DNA of 32,000 nucleotides from Sporosarcina ureae (GCF_002082015.1 NZ_CP015109.1:116134-148133), one strand, 5' to 3'. Counted from the first letter of the stretch, positions 2,891 through 25,436 are shown. A program made the numbers and translations. The notes: generated from the sequence alone by a model not told the origin.

Positions 2891-2930
2891 ATACAATCGA
2901 CTACCTTTTGGATAGTCGATTGTATTCTAT
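2891..2930 (+). terminator. hairpin after ydhR-like gene (weak intrinsic terminator)
   Basis: Perfect 13-bp stem ATACAATCGACTA (2891-2903) / TAGTCGATTGTAT (2913-2925) with a 9-nt loop. The trailing T-tract is poor (TCTAT), so termination may be partial. Confidence 0.4.
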
Positions 2931-2953
2931 ATGATGAAATGGAGGCGTTACTA

Positions 2954-3703
2954 GTGTTACAAAAACTTGCAGCAAGTAAGCATGCTGTGCCGTTTAGAGG
3001 ACCCTTCACCATTACACGCGTTCAACCAGGTGATATTTTAGGAGATACTACGACAGATACGGCGTTTGGTCCGTTAGCGATCATTGATCATGCAGTGATG
3101 AAAAAGGGGTTAACGATTAACATGCATCAGCATATCAATGATGAAATTTTGAGTTACATTAGCTCGGGCGTCATGCATCATCGAGATTCTGCAGGATTTG
3201 AAGCGCCCATTGCTCGCGGAAAATTAATGATGATGAATGCAGGTGCTGGGTTTTGGCATGAAGAAAAAGTAAAAGAAAATGAAGTGGAAATGCTTCAAAT
3301 ATTTGTGCGGCCGAATGAAAAAGATTTACCTCCAGAAATTCAATTTCATGACAAACCGTTAAACAATGAAGACTGGTATGTCATGGCAGGACCTGAAGGA
3401 AGCGAAGCCCCACTTTCTGTACGGCAACACGTCTACATACTAGATGCGCATCCTAAAGCGGGTGAATTAGTAGAGGTGCCAGCCTATGCAGGTCTCACTC
3501 CTTTTCTATATGTCATGAATGGAGAGATCACGATGCAGCATCTCACAGTTGGCAAACAAGAAGCGGTGACCGATGTAGTCAACCCACTCCCGTCGTTTGT
3601 TGCGAATGAAGATACTACTATCGTATTGTTCTTTGTGGAGTTGAATGCGCCTATGTCTATGGATGGAACTATTAGTGGATTAAAGAACGACCCAGCGAAT
3701 TAA
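2954..3703 (+). CDS. pirin-like bicupin protein
   Basis: Cupin metal-site-like segment MHQHINDEILSYISSGVMHHRDSAG...MNAGAGFWHEE resembles the pirin N-terminal domain. GGAGG (2941-2945) lies 8 nt before GTG 2954, and the ORF-track ATG at 2939 overlaps the RBS. Confidence 0.65.
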   Translation: MLQKLAASKHAVPFRGPFTITRVQPGDILGDTTTDTAFGPLAIIDHAVMKKGLTINMHQHINDEILSYISSGVMHHRDSAGFEAPIARGKLMMMNAGAGFWHEEKVKENEVEMLQIFVRPNEKDLPPEIQFHDKPLNNEDWYVMAGPEGSEAPLSVRQHVYILDAHPKAGELVEVPAYAGLTPFLYVMNGEITMQHLTVGKQEAVTDVVNPLPSFVANEDTTIVLFFVELNAPMSMDGTISGLKNDPAN

Positions 3704-3722
3704 TTAATAGAAATTTAAAGTG

Positions 3723-3751
3723 TTGACAATGAAATGCACCCGTGATATATT
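3723..3751 (+). promoter_or_regulatory. near-consensus sigma-A promoter of the dioxygenase/FMN-reductase operon
   Basis: TTGACA (3723-3728), 17-nt spacer, TGaTATATT extended -10 (TG 3743-3744, hexamer 3746-3751). Confidence 0.75.
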
Positions 3752-3770
3752 TATATCGAATTCGAGATAA
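3751..3770. promoter_or_regulatory. 20-bp palindromic operator (MhqR/MarR-type) overlapping the transcription start region
   Basis: TTATATCGAA|TTCGAGATAA is self-complementary except for one pair. It begins at the last base of the -10. It resembles the TATCTCGAA-TTCGAGATA inverted repeat I recall for B. subtilis MhqR operators. Confidence 0.65.
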
Positions 3771-3880
3771 GTTAATTCATTGCAAAAGCAATTGAAGCTT
3801 GAATGAAGATTTTTCTTTTTTTACTATTTTATCTCGAATTAATACTATATGAAAATGAGCCAATATATAGGAGGAAATAT

Positions 3881-4864
3881 ATGAACCATTTAAAAGGAAT
3901 TCATCACGTCACAGCGATTACGAGTAGTGCAGAAAAGAATTATGAATTTTTCACCTATGTACTAGGCATGCGTCTCGTAAAGAAAACGGTCAATCAAGAT
4001 GATGTTCAAACGTATCACTTATTCTTCGCAGACGATCAAGGCTCTGCTGGAACAGATATGACATTTTTCGATTTCCCGGGGATTCCAAAAGGTACGCACG
4101 GTACGAATGAGATTTATAAAACTTCATTCCGTGTGCCGACAGATGCTGCACTTGAATACTGGGTGAAACGTTTTGAGAAATATGAAGTACAACATAGTGG
4201 AATCGAAGAAGTTTTCGGTAAAAAGACGATTTCATTTGTGGACTTTGATGATCAACAATATATGTTAGTTTCTGATGAATTAAACGAAGGTGTTGAGTCA
4301 GGCACACCTTGGCAAAATGGTCCCGTACCGTTGGAGTTCGCTATTACAGGTTTAGGACCTATCCATATTCGCATCGCTGAATTTAAACAGTTTAAAGGGG
4401 TTTTGGAAAAAGCGATGTTCATGCGTGAAATTGCAAGCGAAGGGTCATTCCACTTATTCGAAGTCGGTGAAGGTGGAAATGGCGCGCAAGTCATTGTGGA
4501 ACATAATGAAACGTTACCCGCTGGCCGACAAGGATTCGGTACCGTGCATCACGCAGCATTCCGCGTGGAGGATACGAACGTATTACATGAATGGATTGAC
4601 CATATGCAATCGTCTGGTTTTAGAACTTCAGGATATGTAGATCGCTTCTTCTTTGAATCTTTATACGCAGCAGTAGCGCCTGGTATCCTATTTGAATGGG
4701 CAACAGATGGTCCTGGCTTTATGGGAGACGAACCGTATGAGACAGTTGGGGAGATTCTTTCATTACCGCCATTCCTTGAAGGCAACCGTAAAGAAATTGA
4801 AGCAACCGTGAGACCGATCGATACAGTACGTAGCACACGTACATTCGACAAAGAGTATTTATGA
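3881..4864 (+). CDS. ring-cleaving dioxygenase, VOC/glyoxalase superfamily (MhqA/MhqE/MhqO type)
   Basis: The start MNHLKGIHHVTAITS... follows AGGAGG. Duplicated VOC modules (GIHHVTA...; GTVHHAAFRV) are typical of the B. subtilis Mhq dioxygenases. The upstream 26 codons of the ORF-track model lack an RBS and lie in the 5' UTR. Confidence 0.85.
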   Translation: MNHLKGIHHVTAITSSAEKNYEFFTYVLGMRLVKKTVNQDDVQTYHLFFADDQGSAGTDMTFFDFPGIPKGTHGTNEIYKTSFRVPTDAALEYWVKRFEKYEVQHSGIEEVFGKKTISFVDFDDQQYMLVSDELNEGVESGTPWQNGPVPLEFAITGLGPIHIRIAEFKQFKGVLEKAMFMREIASEGSFHLFEVGEGGNGAQVIVEHNETLPAGRQGFGTVHHAAFRVEDTNVLHEWIDHMQSSGFRTSGYVDRFFFESLYAAVAPGILFEWATDGPGFMGDEPYETVGEILSLPPFLEGNRKEIEATVRPIDTVRSTRTFDKEYL

Positions 4865-4931
4865 GGAGTTGGAATTAAAAATGAGTTTTTTTAGTAAATT
4901 ATTTGGAACAAAACAACAGGAGGAAATAAAA

Positions 4932-5477
4932 ATGACAAAATCAAACATCGGTATTATTTTAGGATCCACACGTGAAGGGCGAGTAAGTCCACAAGTAGGC
5001 GCATGGGTAAAAGAATTGGCAGACAAACGCGGAGATGCGAATTACACGATCATTGATATCGCAGATTATAAATTACCACTTTTAGGTGAAGCAGGCGCAG
5101 ACGCATCAGGCGCAGCTGCATGGTCAGAAGTGATCGCAAAACAAGACGGTTTCGTATTCATCGTACAAGAATACAATCACTCCATTACAGGTGCACTTAA
5201 AAATGCATTAGACTACCTTCGTGTAGAGTGGAACGACAAAGCAGCAGGTATCGTTTCATACGGTGCAGTAGGCGGAGCGCGTGCTGCAGAACATTTACGC
5301 GGTATTTTAAGTGAATTATCTGTGGCACACGTTCGTGTTCATCCTGCATTATCACTATTTACAGACTTTGAAAATGGTACAGATCTCAAACCAGCTGATG
5401 TTCAAGCGGCTTCAGTAAACCAAATGTTAGACCAAGTGATTCCTTGGACGACAGCATTAAATACCATTCGTAAATAA
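4932..5477 (+). CDS. NAD(P)H-dependent FMN reductase family oxidoreductase
   Basis: MTKSNIGIILGSTREGRVS... is the FMN_red N-terminal flavodoxin-like motif. GGAGG (4919-4923) lies 8 nt before ATG 4932. The gap from the dioxygenase stop is short (operon). Confidence 0.8.
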   Translation: MTKSNIGIILGSTREGRVSPQVGAWVKELADKRGDANYTIIDIADYKLPLLGEAGADASGAAAWSEVIAKQDGFVFIVQEYNHSITGALKNALDYLRVEWNDKAAGIVSYGAVGGARAAEHLRGILSELSVAHVRVHPALSLFTDFENGTDLKPADVQAASVNQMLDQVIPWTTALNTIRK

Positions 5478-8472: not shown

Positions 8473-9387
8473 ATGAAATTATTAATCAATGAACAGCCAT
8501 TACAATTACTACCGTCACTTGTACATGTAGTCGGGTTAAATGAGGCATTATTTCTGCAACAACTACATTTCCGCTCACTCATTTCTAAAAATATGCGTGA
8601 CGGTCATCTGTGGGTATATAAAACCTATGATCAATGGCTAGAAGAATTTTCATTCTTGTCACGTATGACGATCAAACGCACGATCTATAATTTGGAAAAA
8701 CAAGGTTATCTCATTTCGACTTCCGAATACAACAAGATGAAAATTGACAAGACGAAATGGTATCGGATTGACTACACCAAACTACCGGTTCAGTCTATTC
8801 AAGATGATGCATCAGTGGAAGAGACGATACCGACAAAAAGCGAACTAGAAACAGATCATGCGACGTCTCAAACAGAAACATCACTGAACCAAAAAGAAGA
8901 GGATGCGATGTTTCAATCTGATACAACGGACGTTTCACTTCGAAACGCTGTGTCGTACCAAATTGAAACGAAGGACTGTACCGATATGGTACGGCCTATA
9001 ACCAAAGAACTTAAAGAACTTAAAGAAACAAAGAATAAAGACCTTGTCGAGAAGCCTCTCGACGTTACGCATTTCGTCATTGCTTACTTGAATGAGAAAA
9101 CCGGTAAGCAATTTAAAGCCACATCTGCAGCGACTAAAAAATTTATTCAAGCGAGAGTGAAAGAAGGCTATACACAACAGGATTTTATACAGGTCATTGA
9201 TCTCAAAGTGTCGAAGTGGAATCACCATCCCGAGTACCGAGCGTACTTACGCCCGTCGACGTTATTCAATCCGACGAACTTTGAAAACTATTTGAATGAA
9301 CAACCGGCAATCCCTGTACAAACTGTGCAAAGGCCTGTGCCTCACTCACCAGTATTGGATTTTAGTAAAGGAGAAGATTTAGGCTAG
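8473..9387 (+). CDS. phage-type replisome organizer-like protein (wHTH N-domain + conserved phage C-terminus, Phg_2220_C-like)
   Basis: 304-aa ORF with an AGGAGG RBS. The C-terminal VIAYLNEKTGKQFKATSAATKKFIQARVKEGYTQQDFIQVIDLKVSKWNHHPEYRAYLRPSTLFNPTNFENYLNE matches the conserved phage C-terminal domain I know from prophage replication modules. No other phage genes are nearby. Confidence 0.7.
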   Translation: MKLLINEQPLQLLPSLVHVVGLNEALFLQQLHFRSLISKNMRDGHLWVYKTYDQWLEEFSFLSRMTIKRTIYNLEKQGYLISTSEYNKMKIDKTKWYRIDYTKLPVQSIQDDASVEETIPTKSELETDHATSQTETSLNQKEEDAMFQSDTTDVSLRNAVSYQIETKDCTDMVRPITKELKELKETKNKDLVEKPLDVTHFVIAYLNEKTGKQFKATSAATKKFIQARVKEGYTQQDFIQVIDLKVSKWNHHPEYRAYLRPSTLFNPTNFENYLNEQPAIPVQTVQRPVPHSPVLDFSKGEDLG

Positions 9388-19493: not shown

Positions 19494-19619
19494 GATTTGC
19501 TAATCTCTTATCCAATTGATCAATTATCATGAACAATTAAACTCAGCTTGTAAAATTCATACCGAAAATCAATTCGTACAATCAATTATTTGATACCTAT
19601 GCCTTTTCGTACGTACAAA

Positions 19620-20062
19620 ATTCAATTTCTCCATTTTAACGGTTTTTTTATTCCCTGTATTATATTGAGTTCAACACAATAAATAACAGAATAGTTAGAA
19701 AAATTAACAGAAAAATGATATACTTTACACTAAGAAGTGTCTGGAGCCGATTACGATGAATGATAAACATTTGTAAAAAGTATTCATAAGCTAGAATGAA
19801 CTGATCCTAGATTCAGATGGACGACTTGCCTATGAAGTGCGTTTGAAACAAGTACTAGATCAGAAGACTACAGTGAATGAAGCGAAGTGGAGGAAGGAGA
19901 AGGCAAGGGGGGAAGGAGTAGAAAAAGCAATACCAATAGGAGTAGAAAGGATAGTCCAAACAACGCATAGCATTTAAAGGAGAATATAGATTTAGAGTCG
20001 TAGCCAAAATAACCAGCTTATTTATTGAACATGTAAAATTGTTGAAAGAAGATGTAGAGTAG
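19620..20062 (+). pseudogene. decayed, internally deleted copy of the rpn gene (promoter + 5'UTR fused to C-terminal domain)
   Basis: 19620-19740 aligns with 24341-24459, and 19741-19975 aligns codon for codon with 25107-25340. There are in-frame TAA (19774) and TAG (19792) stops, then a frameshift near 19975. Homology continues to the stop at 20060-20062. Confidence 0.75.
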
Positions 20063-23472: not shown

Positions 23473-24156
23473 TTACGGTTCACCAGAAATTCGTTTGCTA
23501 GTATCTACATCTTGACCCGCCACACGCTTTTCAAACGTCTTCCGCCAGCTAGGGGACAACTCTTCAACTTCTAGCAAACGACGAACTGCTCCTAAGTCTT
23601 GCTTGTCATGATGCATTAGCCGATTCGCTTCTGCTACTGAAATAGCAAGTGCTTGGCGTGTTAACGGAATTAACGGATCCGTTGGCGAAACCAACCCTTC
23701 TTGCAACACGCGGAAATAAAAGCCTGTAAAGCCTGTATCCTGTACAAGAAGCGGCATATCTTTCCGTTCATAGACAAGTGCTAACTTAAAACAAGGCTGG
23801 CGAGGCTGACTCACTTGAACAATTGCTTCGCCCAGCTGAAAGGAGTCACCAATACAAATATCTTCTTCAGTCACCCCTGTTAGAGTAAGGTTCTCACCGA
23901 ACGCACTGTACGGAAGCGTTCTTTCTAATACGCGTTCCCAATGAGAATAATGTTCATACGGATACACACAAACCGCTTTATGAACACCACCGTGATGAAC
24001 GAGATCTCCTTGACCATCCCCAGTAAAGTTGACAGAGGATAAAAAAACCGCTTGCTGCACCCGCTCTTTGAAAAAGCCTGTCGTCACAGATTTCTTTCCG
24101 AAATCCCTATCTTTAGGTTTCCCTACATTTAATGAAAGAATTTCAACCTTGTTCAT
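23473..24156 (-). CDS. MOSC domain protein (YiiM-like)
   Basis: VHHGG.HKAV..Y...Y..W......AFGENLT..G..E...CIGD....GEAI.QVSQPRQPC.KL is the MOSC/YiiM beta-barrel signature. GGAGG RBS before ATG 24156. Confidence 0.85.
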   Translation of the reverse strand: MNKVEILSLNVGKPKDRDFGKKSVTTGFFKERVQQAVFLSSVNFTGDGQGDLVHHGGVHKAVCVYPYEHYSHWERVLERTLPYSAFGENLTLTGVTEEDICIGDSFQLGEAIVQVSQPRQPCFKLALVYERKDMPLLVQDTGFTGFYFRVLQEGLVSPTDPLIPLTRQALAISVAEANRLMHHDKQDLGAVRRLLEVEELSPSWRKTFEKRVAGQDVDTSKRISGEP

Positions 24157-24413
24157 GGAATCAACCTCCAGTAGAATCAATATATTACTTGGTTATAAGT
24201 GTATCACTATCACTAAGGCTTGGTAAATTCCAACCCTCTAAGAGAAACTTCAACAATTCAATTTCATCTTCAAAAAACACATCAAAATCGAATTCCTAAA
24301 ATTAAATTCCTCATACCTACAACATCCCCTTCTTTATATAATTCATTTTCCCCATTTTGACGATTTTCTAATTCTGTCATATGCTGATTTCAACACAGTA
24401 ACTAACAGAACAG

Positions 24414-24443
24414 TTAGAAAAATCATCGGAAAAATGATATACT
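24414..24443 (+). promoter_or_regulatory. candidate promoter of rpn (conserved in the decayed copy)
   Basis: TTAGAA (24414-24419), 18 nt, TGaTATACT (-10 hexamer 24438-24443). The same block is present at about 19693-19722. Confidence 0.5.
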
Positions 24444-24470
24444 TTATTCTAAGAAGTGTGAGGAAACCGC

Positions 24471-25436
24471 ATGAACAAACGAGCGATGAAACGGATCTAT
24501 GTAAAGAATTTAGTAGATTTAAAAATTGATTTTGCGTTTAAAGAATTATTTGGCAGCGGGAAAAACAAAGCGATTACCATTATTTTTCTGAATGCCATTC
24601 TCAAACGAACCGGCCGGAATTCAATTAAAGAAGTAACCTTTATAAATCCAGAAATTGGTGCAGAATATGAAGACGACAAGCTATCGCGTCTGGATATTTT
24701 GGTCACCACACAGGATCGGCATCAGATTAATATTGAAATGCAATTTACGAATCAATATGATATGGTCAATCGCAGTGTGTATTATTGGGCTAGATTATAC
24801 AGTGAGCAAAATAAAAGGGGAATGGCATACAATACACTACAACCTACCATTATGATGAACATAATGAATTTTAATTTGATTTCGGAAACGGAAGGATATC
24901 ATACGACGTATCACTTACATGAAGATGAAAAGAAATTTCGTATAGCGGATGGATTGGAATTGCATTTCATTGAAATACCGAAGCTGCTTGCGCATTGGTA
25001 TGATGAAAAGCTCGACCCGTGGAATGACGTATTGGCTCGATGGTTGCTTCTATTAAGTATCGTAGACCAACGAAAACAACATATTTACGAAGACATTTAC
25101 AAAGAACTGGAGGCGATTGCGATGACTGACAAACATCTGCAAGATGCATTTATAAGTTGGAATGAAATGAGTCTAGATTCGGATGGACGACTTGCCTACG
25201 AAGTGCGCTTAAAACAAGTTCTGGATCAAGAAGCGGCGTTAAATGAGGCGAAGTGGAGAGAAAAGAAGGCTAGGGAGGAAGGGATAGAAAAGGGAATAGA
25301 AAAGGGCAAGACAGAGGAGAAAGAACATATTGCACGTAAACTTCTACTGAAGAAACTAGGTGTAGAAATTGTGGCTGAAACAACGGGGTTATCTTTAGAG
25401 CGTGTGCAAGAGATGAAAGCAGAATTAGGTTTATAA
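24471..25436 (+). CDS. Rpn family recombination-promoting nuclease / putative transposase (YhgA-like, PDDEXK_2)
   Basis: N-terminal DFAFKELFG...FLNAIL...EDDKLSRLDILV...INIEMQ (PD-(D/E)XK core) and HFIEIPK are the TIGR01784/Rpn signature. The C-terminus is Lys/Glu-rich. Confidence 0.85.
   Translation: MNKRAMKRIYVKNLVDLKIDFAFKELFGSGKNKAITIIFLNAILKRTGRNSIKEVTFINPEIGAEYEDDKLSRLDILVTTQDRHQINIEMQFTNQYDMVNRSVYYWARLYSEQNKRGMAYNTLQPTIMMNIMNFNLISETEGYHTTYHLHEDEKKFRIADGLELHFIEIPKLLAHWYDEKLDPWNDVLARWLLLLSIVDQRKQHIYEDIYKELEAIAMTDKHLQDAFISWNEMSLDSDGRLAYEVRLKQVLDQEAALNEAKWREKKAREEGIEKGIEKGKTEEKEHIARKLLLKKLGVEIVAETTGLSLERVQEMKAELGL

Follow-up and report, generated by a model that had tools for sequence, protein, structure and literature searches.

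An Rpn-family gene with a probable second start site inside it

The subject of this report is a gene of the Rpn family of recombination-promoting nucleases from Sporosarcina ureae, and in particular a second Shine-Dalgarno (SD) sequence and start codon that lie inside its reading frame. The gene is located on a 32,000-nucleotide (nt) stretch of the genome (NZ_CP015109.1:116134-148133), which we call the window and from whose first nucleotide all positions are counted. The features of the gene that concern its two starts are as follows.

24471..25436, + strand: rpnL, full-length 321-amino acid (aa) Rpn-family PD-(D/E)XK protein (Pfam, NCBIfam and invariant alignment columns)
25108..25113, + strand: internal SD, TGGAGG, reading across codons L213 and E214 into the first base of codon 215 (unchanged in 81/81 aligned genes, as in 3 plasmid homologues)
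25122..25436, + strand: nested rpnS-like open reading frame (ORF), 104 aa from Met218, with frame and stop codon in common with rpnL (NTG start in 81/81 genes)
24415..24443, + strand: putative promoter-like site of rpn, of the extended -10 type: TAGAAA and TATACT 17 nt apart, the -10 being preceded by TG (consensus scan)
24460..24463, + strand: weaker SD, GAGG, belonging to the full-length start and separated by 7 nt from ATG 24471 (read from the sequence)

Within the internal site, GGAGG at 25109-25113 is followed by an 8-nt spacer and then by ATG at 25122-25124, which is codon 218 and is in frame with the full-length start, since (25122-24471)/3 = 217. The predicted product of this start is a protein of 104 aa (MTDKHLQDAF...KAELGL) that consists of the C-terminal tail of the full-length protein. 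A preliminary description of the locus had reported this arrangement and had assigned an Rpn/PDDEXK_2 nuclease core to the 321-aa ORF, and we find both to be correct.

The family assignment is clear, because Pfam PF12784 (PDDEXK_2) covers residues 18-260 of the 321-aa protein with an E-value of 1.3e-60, and NCBIfam TIGR01784 ('Rpn family recombination-promoting nuclease/putative transposase'; COG5464) scores 214.4 bits against a cutoff of 52.1, with protein residues 18-314 aligned to model positions 1-272 of 273. An NCBI protein from Sporosarcina ureae (P0001), named 'Rpn family' there, has the same sequence throughout (100% identity). PF12784 was the sole match of the 321-aa protein in the Pfam scan at E <= 1, where neither Transposase_31, the family of E. 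coli YhgA, nor, for the tail, DUF4351 was matched. Thus, the 'YhgA-like' label given earlier was right about the Rpn family and imprecise about YhgA. The PD-(D/E)XK core, which in the Rpn family reads D ... E-x-Q, is conserved as D75, E89 and Q91; E89 and Q91 are invariant in both of our alignments, and D75 is invariant in one and at least 90% conserved in the other.

Relatives of the 321-aa protein occur in 847 plasmid records (Bacillus 536, Clostridium 118, Priestia 82, Leptospira 65), B. anthracis pXO1 included, with up to 9 copies on one B. mycoides plasmid. One relative, P0045, which aligns to 81% of the query at 61% identity, carries DUF4351 as its tail (residues 275-332), unlike the window-type tail, and therefore C-terminal modules are exchanged between otherwise similar Rpn proteins.

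The internal SD and start codon are conserved at synonymous sites

For the conservation test, we used 80 Bacillales loci encoding relatives at 44-91% aa identity, which with the window gene make an alignment of 81 genes, and we combined counts of degenerate patterns with a reading by eye of the 81-row DNA alignment (A2). No gene among the 81 departs from TGGAGG (T47-G52 in A2), from the 8-nt spacing or from TG as the last two bases of the start codon, in an alignment with a mean column identity of 53% where the third positions of the neighboring codons Y206, D208, I209, I216 and A217 vary freely. Every match to the residue pattern E-L-E-x-I-A-M (45/45) carries YTG GAG G, and so does every match to a looser pattern that admits any NTG start (65/65).

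The codons chosen within this motif can be compared with those chosen for the same residues elsewhere in the gene. The E214 codon is GAG in 81/81 genes, whereas the nearby and equally invariant E212, only two codons off, is GAA in ~73/79 genes, and a further control, E168, is GAG in 14/32 (44%). Leu213 is encoded by CTG or TTG throughout, apart from one ATG, while the control L74 is YTG in 28/70 (40%). Codon 215 is invariably GNN although the residue it encodes varies among E, A, G and V. The start codon itself is ATG in 71 genes, GTG in 6 and TTG in 4, so that where Met218 is replaced by Val the codon is always GTG (6/6), where it is replaced by Leu the codon is always TTG (4/4), and no other Val or Leu codon is used. 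These patterns at E214, Leu213, codon 215 and Met218 therefore indicate that the constraint acts on the RNA and not on the protein. TGGAGG-N8-ATG is also present in the more distant Rpn genes of B. cereus pRML01, B. anthracis pXO1 and a Priestia plasmid (37-41% identity).

The motif is also unusual in its placement. GGAGG-N5-10-ATG is found 12 times in the window, compared with 3.66 +/- 1.8 times in shuffled sequence, and 11 of the 12 are real gene starts; the twelfth is the internal rpn site. Alignment of orthologues had been proposed in the preliminary description as a way to ask whether the SD-N8-start arrangement is conserved beyond what the residues need, and this is what the 81 aligned and 3 plasmid genes indicate. 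From the codon patterns, we conclude that there is a strong case for selection on the internal SD and start codon at the nucleotide level, and that the internal start is very probably functional.

We also considered two other kinds of signal near the internal start. The best candidate for an internal promoter, TTGAAA-17-TATGAT at 24733-24761, was rejected because it is kept in only 7/40 relatives; since it sits in equally conserved residues, it serves as a negative control for the conservation of the SD. The RNA around the internal start folds with a minimum free energy of -13.2 kcal/mol (z -1.4), and most of the SD is left unpaired, which provides no evidence that RNA structure regulates this start.

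The tail carries a variable four-residue repeat and a module shared with RpnA-S

To describe the tail, we aligned 33 tails beginning at the internal Met. They consist of a conserved segment (MKDExLxxAFxxWEELSxTxEExLAYExRLKxVLDEEAA), then (K/E/Q)G(I/L)(E/Q) tetrads that number from none to ~ten and differ in number even between nearest relatives, and finally a conserved helix-turn-helix (HTH)-like end. In the window gene, the second and third parts correspond to the following features.

25279..25306, + strand: 12-nt tandem repeat, 2.4 copies, AAGGGAATAGAA, encoding (E/K)GIE tetrads in the long helix (repeat search; variation among relatives)
25320..25433, + strand: C-terminal HTH-like module, small-protein residues 67-104, shared with E. 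coli RpnA-S (7TH0 profile match)

In Sporosarcina obsidiansis (L004), the repeat has 6.3 copies. A profile of the 33 tails (A3) matched PDB entry 7TH0_A, 'Recombination-promoting nuclease RpnA', which is the RpnA-S crystal chain, with an E-value of 0.0011 and 22.3 bits. This match is marginal, but it falls at the expected place, with profile positions 67-104 on chain residues 8-45. Consistent with it, PF27070 (HTH_Rpn_C) has a weak precomputed match on P0121, a homologue 88% identical to the window protein. The AlphaFold2 (AF2) model of the full-length protein has a long helix at 237-293 followed by two short helices, with a predicted local distance difference test score (pLDDT) of 86-89 at the end, and a single-sequence model of the 104-aa protein is essentially one long helix. 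About 45 conserved residues of the small protein are counted by Pfam within PDDEXK_2 (model positions 188-229). With its variable 12-nt/4-aa repeat, its profile match to RpnA-S and the stand-alone copies in relatives described below, the tail shows the hallmarks of an RpnS.

Copies of the tail without the nuclease part

In three relatives, a gene for the small protein alone follows directly after the full-length rpn gene, and in each it has one repeat more or one fewer. In Sporosarcina sp. ACRSM (L013:3629-4365), 3629-3851 is repeated at 4003-4225 with 99% identity and the LEQG tetrads number 4 versus 3; in Virgibacillus soli (L028:3631-4415), 3631-3887 is repeated at 4056-4312 with 98% identity and the tetrads number 6 versus 7; and in Ureibacillus xyleni (L061:3650-4445), they number 5 versus 6 and the copy has a new N-terminus. 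L061 seems to hold a third partial copy as well (3650-3753 = 4342-4445, 82%). The duplicated segments of L013 and L028 begin 7-9 nt upstream of TGGAGG, and the only expression signals carried along by their intact 111-112-aa ORFs are this SD and ATG.

The window itself holds a decayed copy 4.7 kb upstream of the intact rpn gene.

19619..19932, + strand: decayed rpn copy, made up of the promoter region at 19619-19740 joined directly to the internal SD/ATG with ~62 codons from the start of the tail (19741-19932) (blastn, tblastn)

The first 122 nt of this copy (19619-19740) match the region upstream of rpn at 24340-24459 with 83% identity, and they include the bases of the extended -10 promoter-like site (ttagaaaaattaacagaaaaatgatatact); the remainder (19741-19932) matches 25107-25298 with 80% identity. 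The segment 24460-25106, which is the entire nuclease part, is deleted. The SD is changed to GGAGC (19743-19747) ahead of ATG 19756, there are stops at codon 7 (TAA, 19774) and codon 13 (TAG, 19792), and the match stops at the counterpart of residue 279, which leaves the C-terminal HTH part unrecognizable. Therefore, this copy is dead. It had been put forward as independent support for a retained small gene that keeps its promoter, SD, ATG and C-terminal domain. The copy does exist, and the promoter region and ATG are kept while the nuclease part is lost, but a pseudogene with a mutated SD and without the HTH module says little for a retained small gene. A search for other strains by way of the neighboring SnoaL protein gave no match.

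Two further 5′-truncated remnants were found in metagenomes, one (L085) with GGAAG in place of GGAGG and one (L086) with the SD kept. Thus, the perfect SD is lost in 2/3 copies that lack the nuclease part, compared with 84/84 kept where the gene still reaches across the nuclease domain, including a few genes with nonsense mutations. Though the numbers are small, this fits a small protein that would be needed mainly when the nuclease is present, and the SD change in the decayed window copy likewise fits relaxed selection after loss of the nuclease part. The L086 remnant has an intact SD, ATG and 103-aa tail ORF and lies ~750 nt downstream of a Schlafen-like gene (SLFN_AlbA_2 + HATPase_c_4), the two together occupying L086:742-2244 and 2896-3312.

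Breakpoints lie at most 10 nt upstream of the internal SD in three independent rearrangements, which are the window deletion (25107/24459 junction) and the duplications at L013:3629 and L028:3631. The two sites joined by the window deletion are alike, AAGAAgtgtGAGG and AAGAActgGAGG. The shared position could reflect either selection for retention of the SD or a recombination hotspot.

Surroundings of the gene

The genes flanking rpn encode, by Pfam, a catalase, a SnoaL-like protein, an AI-2E transporter, a MOSC protein, a squalene/phytoene synthase and LytS/LytT, with transporters and redox enzymes farther out. The only phage-related gene that we noticed in the window is at 8473-9387, among housekeeping genes, and encodes a 304-aa protein with Phg_2220_C ('conserved phage C-terminus', E 9e-29). 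Apart from the rpn site, ATGs spaced behind GGAGG lie within three other listed ORFs, at 3870-3883, 4919-4934 and 24154-24169 (- strand), and the true starts of the ORFs 3803..4864, 4869..5477 and 23473..24180 (- strand) are probably ATG 3881, ATG 4932 and ATG 24156, respectively.

Comparison with known Rpn systems

Gene-within-gene RpnL/RpnS systems have been described in E. coli, where they comprise RpnA-E and the plasmid-encoded RpnP2 (Zhong et al. 2023, PNAS, PMC10400941). There, RpnL is a toxic nuclease that RpnS binds and inhibits, the specificity with which RpnL and RpnS pair depends on how many four-residue repeats they have, and one plasmid Rpn system gives protection from some phages (PMC10400941). 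The window gene resembles these systems in several ways. It has an N-terminal domain of the PD-(D/E)XK nuclease type and an in-frame internal SD and start that are predicted to give the C-terminal tail as a separate small protein, and this tail, like RpnS of E. coli, has a long helix, a hypervariable four-residue (12-nt) repeat and then an HTH-like three-helix module. The downstream small-gene copies of L013, L028 and L061 resemble the rpnE-ypaA arrangement of E. coli, in which the small gene stands alone as an 'rpnSs' (PMC10400941). More generally, the 19.6-kb remnant and these intact copies are tail-only small genes, as are the rpnSs (ypaA and DUF4351/PF14261 proteins), although, unlike rpnSs, the stand-alone copy in the window is dead, lies upstream of rpn and is fused to a copied rpn promoter.

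The window gene also differs from the E. coli genes. Its nuclease part belongs to PF12784 (PDDEXK_2), without an E. coli-type family match at E <= 1. E. coli rpn genes have an internal promoter that gives a short transcript (PMC10400941), whereas a consensus scan detected no conserved one in the window gene. The position of the internal start, the length of its product and the distance from Met to repeats differ as well, and we return to these below. Since the layout is already described in E. coli, the window gene extends the published mechanism with one structural twist and is no new kind of system.

The gene is not the first example outside E. coli either. When a C. difficile rpn gene was placed in E. 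coli, RpnS was detected, and it was abolished by mutating the predicted ribosome-binding site and internal start, according to SI Fig. S2C,D of the E. coli study; Bacillus cereus is among the species that the same source gives as having RpnS proteins that vary by four-residue repeats (PMC10400941). Our search for later literature on Bacillales Rpn systems found none. The earlier statement that the layout was undescribed in Bacillales is thus narrowly true, with the C. difficile RpnS shown and B. cereus already listed in that source. Like the window gene, the C. difficile gene is a Gram-positive (Bacillota) rpn, but it belongs to a different class (Clostridia). The sole clostridial homologue that we examined, from C. 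perfringens pCPPB-1 (L083), lacks both TGGAGG and the Met218-equivalent at this position; therefore, the Bacillales start is probably not the clostridial one. L083 does have another Met in frame, which lies in 'YNMREK' behind AAGGAAAGAG and comes ~19 residues ahead of the KGKLEGKLES repeats (within L083:1150-1290). This Met may be its internal start, which would match the published rule that RpnS repeats start 8-20 residues after the initiating Met (PMC10400941).

Proposed mechanism and alternative explanations

We propose that gene 24471-25436 encodes two nested proteins, the small one acting as antitoxin of the nuclease, and we put the probability of this at about 0.65. Ribosomes that start at ATG 24471, behind the weak GAGG, would make the 321-aa nuclease-type RpnL, and ribosomes that start at the internal TGGAGG-N8-ATG (25108-25124) would make the 104-aa RpnS-like protein, with its conserved N-terminal helical segment, its long helix bearing the variable (E/K)GIE tetrads and its C-terminal HTH-like module. 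By analogy with E. coli RpnL/RpnS, the small protein would pair with the identical helix of RpnL and keep the nuclease inactive, the number of repeats would set the specificity of this pairing, and the nuclease would be set free by a trigger, for example phage infection. We infer each of these elements, namely use of the internal start, toxicity of RpnL, its neutralization by the small protein and the role in phage defense, from conservation and from likeness to the E. coli systems.

Several observations weigh against this proposal. Measured from the HTH module that both have, the internal start is ~55-60 codons farther upstream than that of E. coli RpnA-S, whose Met1 falls near position 60 of the tail-alignment profile, and the 104-aa product (92-146 aa in relatives) is about twice as long as the 49-aa RpnA-S crystal chain. 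The tetrads start at residue 53 of the product, 52 residues after Met, and not 8-20 residues after it as in published RpnS proteins; the gene has no in-frame ATG with an SD nearer to the repeats than Met218. A fold search with the model of the 104-aa protein returned nothing at E < 4. The AF2 model of the full-length protein is moderate (pLDDT 64), and the weak PD-(D/E)XK matches it gave in a PDB fold search, such as EcoO109I and EndoMS, were non-significant. No sigma-A-like site was found in the 340 nt before the internal start, in a consensus scan that cannot exclude other promoters. All of the flanking genes that we scanned are housekeeping genes, the locus is outside any defense island, and PADLOC gave no matches for the ten nearest neighbors and, for the 321-aa protein, a best match at E 0.012 over a 26-residue stretch, which is not significant. 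The suggestion that this may be a phage-defense locus thus has little support; it derives from family membership and is unsupported by the context. In addition, the nuclease frames of the closest relatives are broken, by Q91* at the catalytic E-x-Q in L001 (3001-3957) and by K45* together with a 4-aa deletion in L002 (3001-3966), with the tail ORF still open in both. Such nonsense mutations would fit a costly toxin and equally a gene of little use. L069 (3580-3654) has an in-frame TGA ~17 codons before its internal start.

One alternative is that the internal start is real and the small protein is not an antitoxin. It might instead work with the nuclease as a positive partner or as one of its subunits, in the way of Cas11d, which is produced from within cas10d, or it might be an HTH-type DNA-binding regulator, for example of the rpn promoter, and its doubled size, the ~45 conserved PDDEXK_2 residues within it and its HTH-like end all speak for such a role. 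The E. coli study itself cites complementary functions for products of internal starts, and neutralization was tested there for E. coli proteins only (PMC10400941). Yet variable tetrads in a helix that both proteins share, and small-gene copies one repeat apart from their full-length partners, are the very features that published work ties to RpnL-RpnS pairing and inhibition. The changed SD of nuclease-less copies (GGAGC in the window, GGAAG in L085) also suggests that the small gene matters chiefly beside RpnL, although L086 keeps its SD and the count is two of three. We consider this alternative unlikely. We find it quite improbable that only the 321-aa protein is made and that something other than initiation keeps TGGAGG and Met218 conserved. 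In that case, the motif might be a site in the DNA or RNA, for instance for recombination, cleavage or anti-SD pausing, beside a Met that the structure needs. The three independent breakpoints just upstream of the motif could indeed point to a recombination hotspot, but then it would be hard to see why Met218 is replaced by start-capable codons only, why the spacing is fixed at the 8 nt that are optimal for initiation and why the motif lies almost exclusively at real gene starts elsewhere in the window; moreover, the intact ORFs of L013 and L028 have nothing but this SD and ATG to drive them.

It is also very improbable, in our estimate, that the gene is a selfish or decaying relic of a mobile element ('putative transposase') without a current cellular role, its nested start being ancestral and still undecayed. 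A dead copy 4.7 kb away, nonsense mutations in the nuclease part of nearest relatives and the TGA of L069, a patchy multi-copy distribution that includes the 847 plasmid records, and a housekeeping context would all be expected of such a relic. Against it, nothing is broken in rpnL, which keeps every invariant core residue, family-wide purifying selection on both protein and SD shows that the family is functional, and no transposon ends or target duplications were found for rpn genes (PMC10400941). We therefore retain the proposal of two nested proteins with a small antitoxin. Relative to the preliminary description, the nested RpnS-type small gene is supported by nucleotide-level selection on its start and by the hallmarks of its tail, while the YhgA label, the defense role and the weight placed on the decayed copy were overstated.

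The differences from E. coli and the shared breakpoints can be combined in a further reading, which we offer as speculative. The nested gene of the Bacillales PDDEXK_2 Rpn group would be either independent of the E. coli type or shifted from it, and there would be a preferred breakpoint upstream of its SD. A start ~55 codons upstream may yield a double-size RpnS whose extra conserved helical segment touches the nuclease domain directly. The stretch upstream of the internal SD may be the preferred breakpoint, perhaps cut by RpnL itself, and this breakpoint may be where small-protein modules are copied out with one repeat more or fewer or where the toxin part is deleted.

Significance

Toxicity, neutralization and defense are already established elsewhere in the Rpn family, and here they would follow by homology. 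The evidence from the window gene is evolutionary, in that an internal SD and start codon are invariant at synonymous sites, and it would carry the Rpn design of an 'antitoxin inside toxin' over to a large set of genes in Bacillales, among them the copies on B. anthracis pXO1 and B. cereus plasmids. It also suggests a simple rule for annotation, by which TGGAGG-N8-NTG at an E-L-E-x-I-A-M motif marks an unannotated protein of ~100 aa in hundreds of genomes. Because the nested start is placed differently from that of E. coli, these genes are relevant to the question of what part of the tail inhibition requires.

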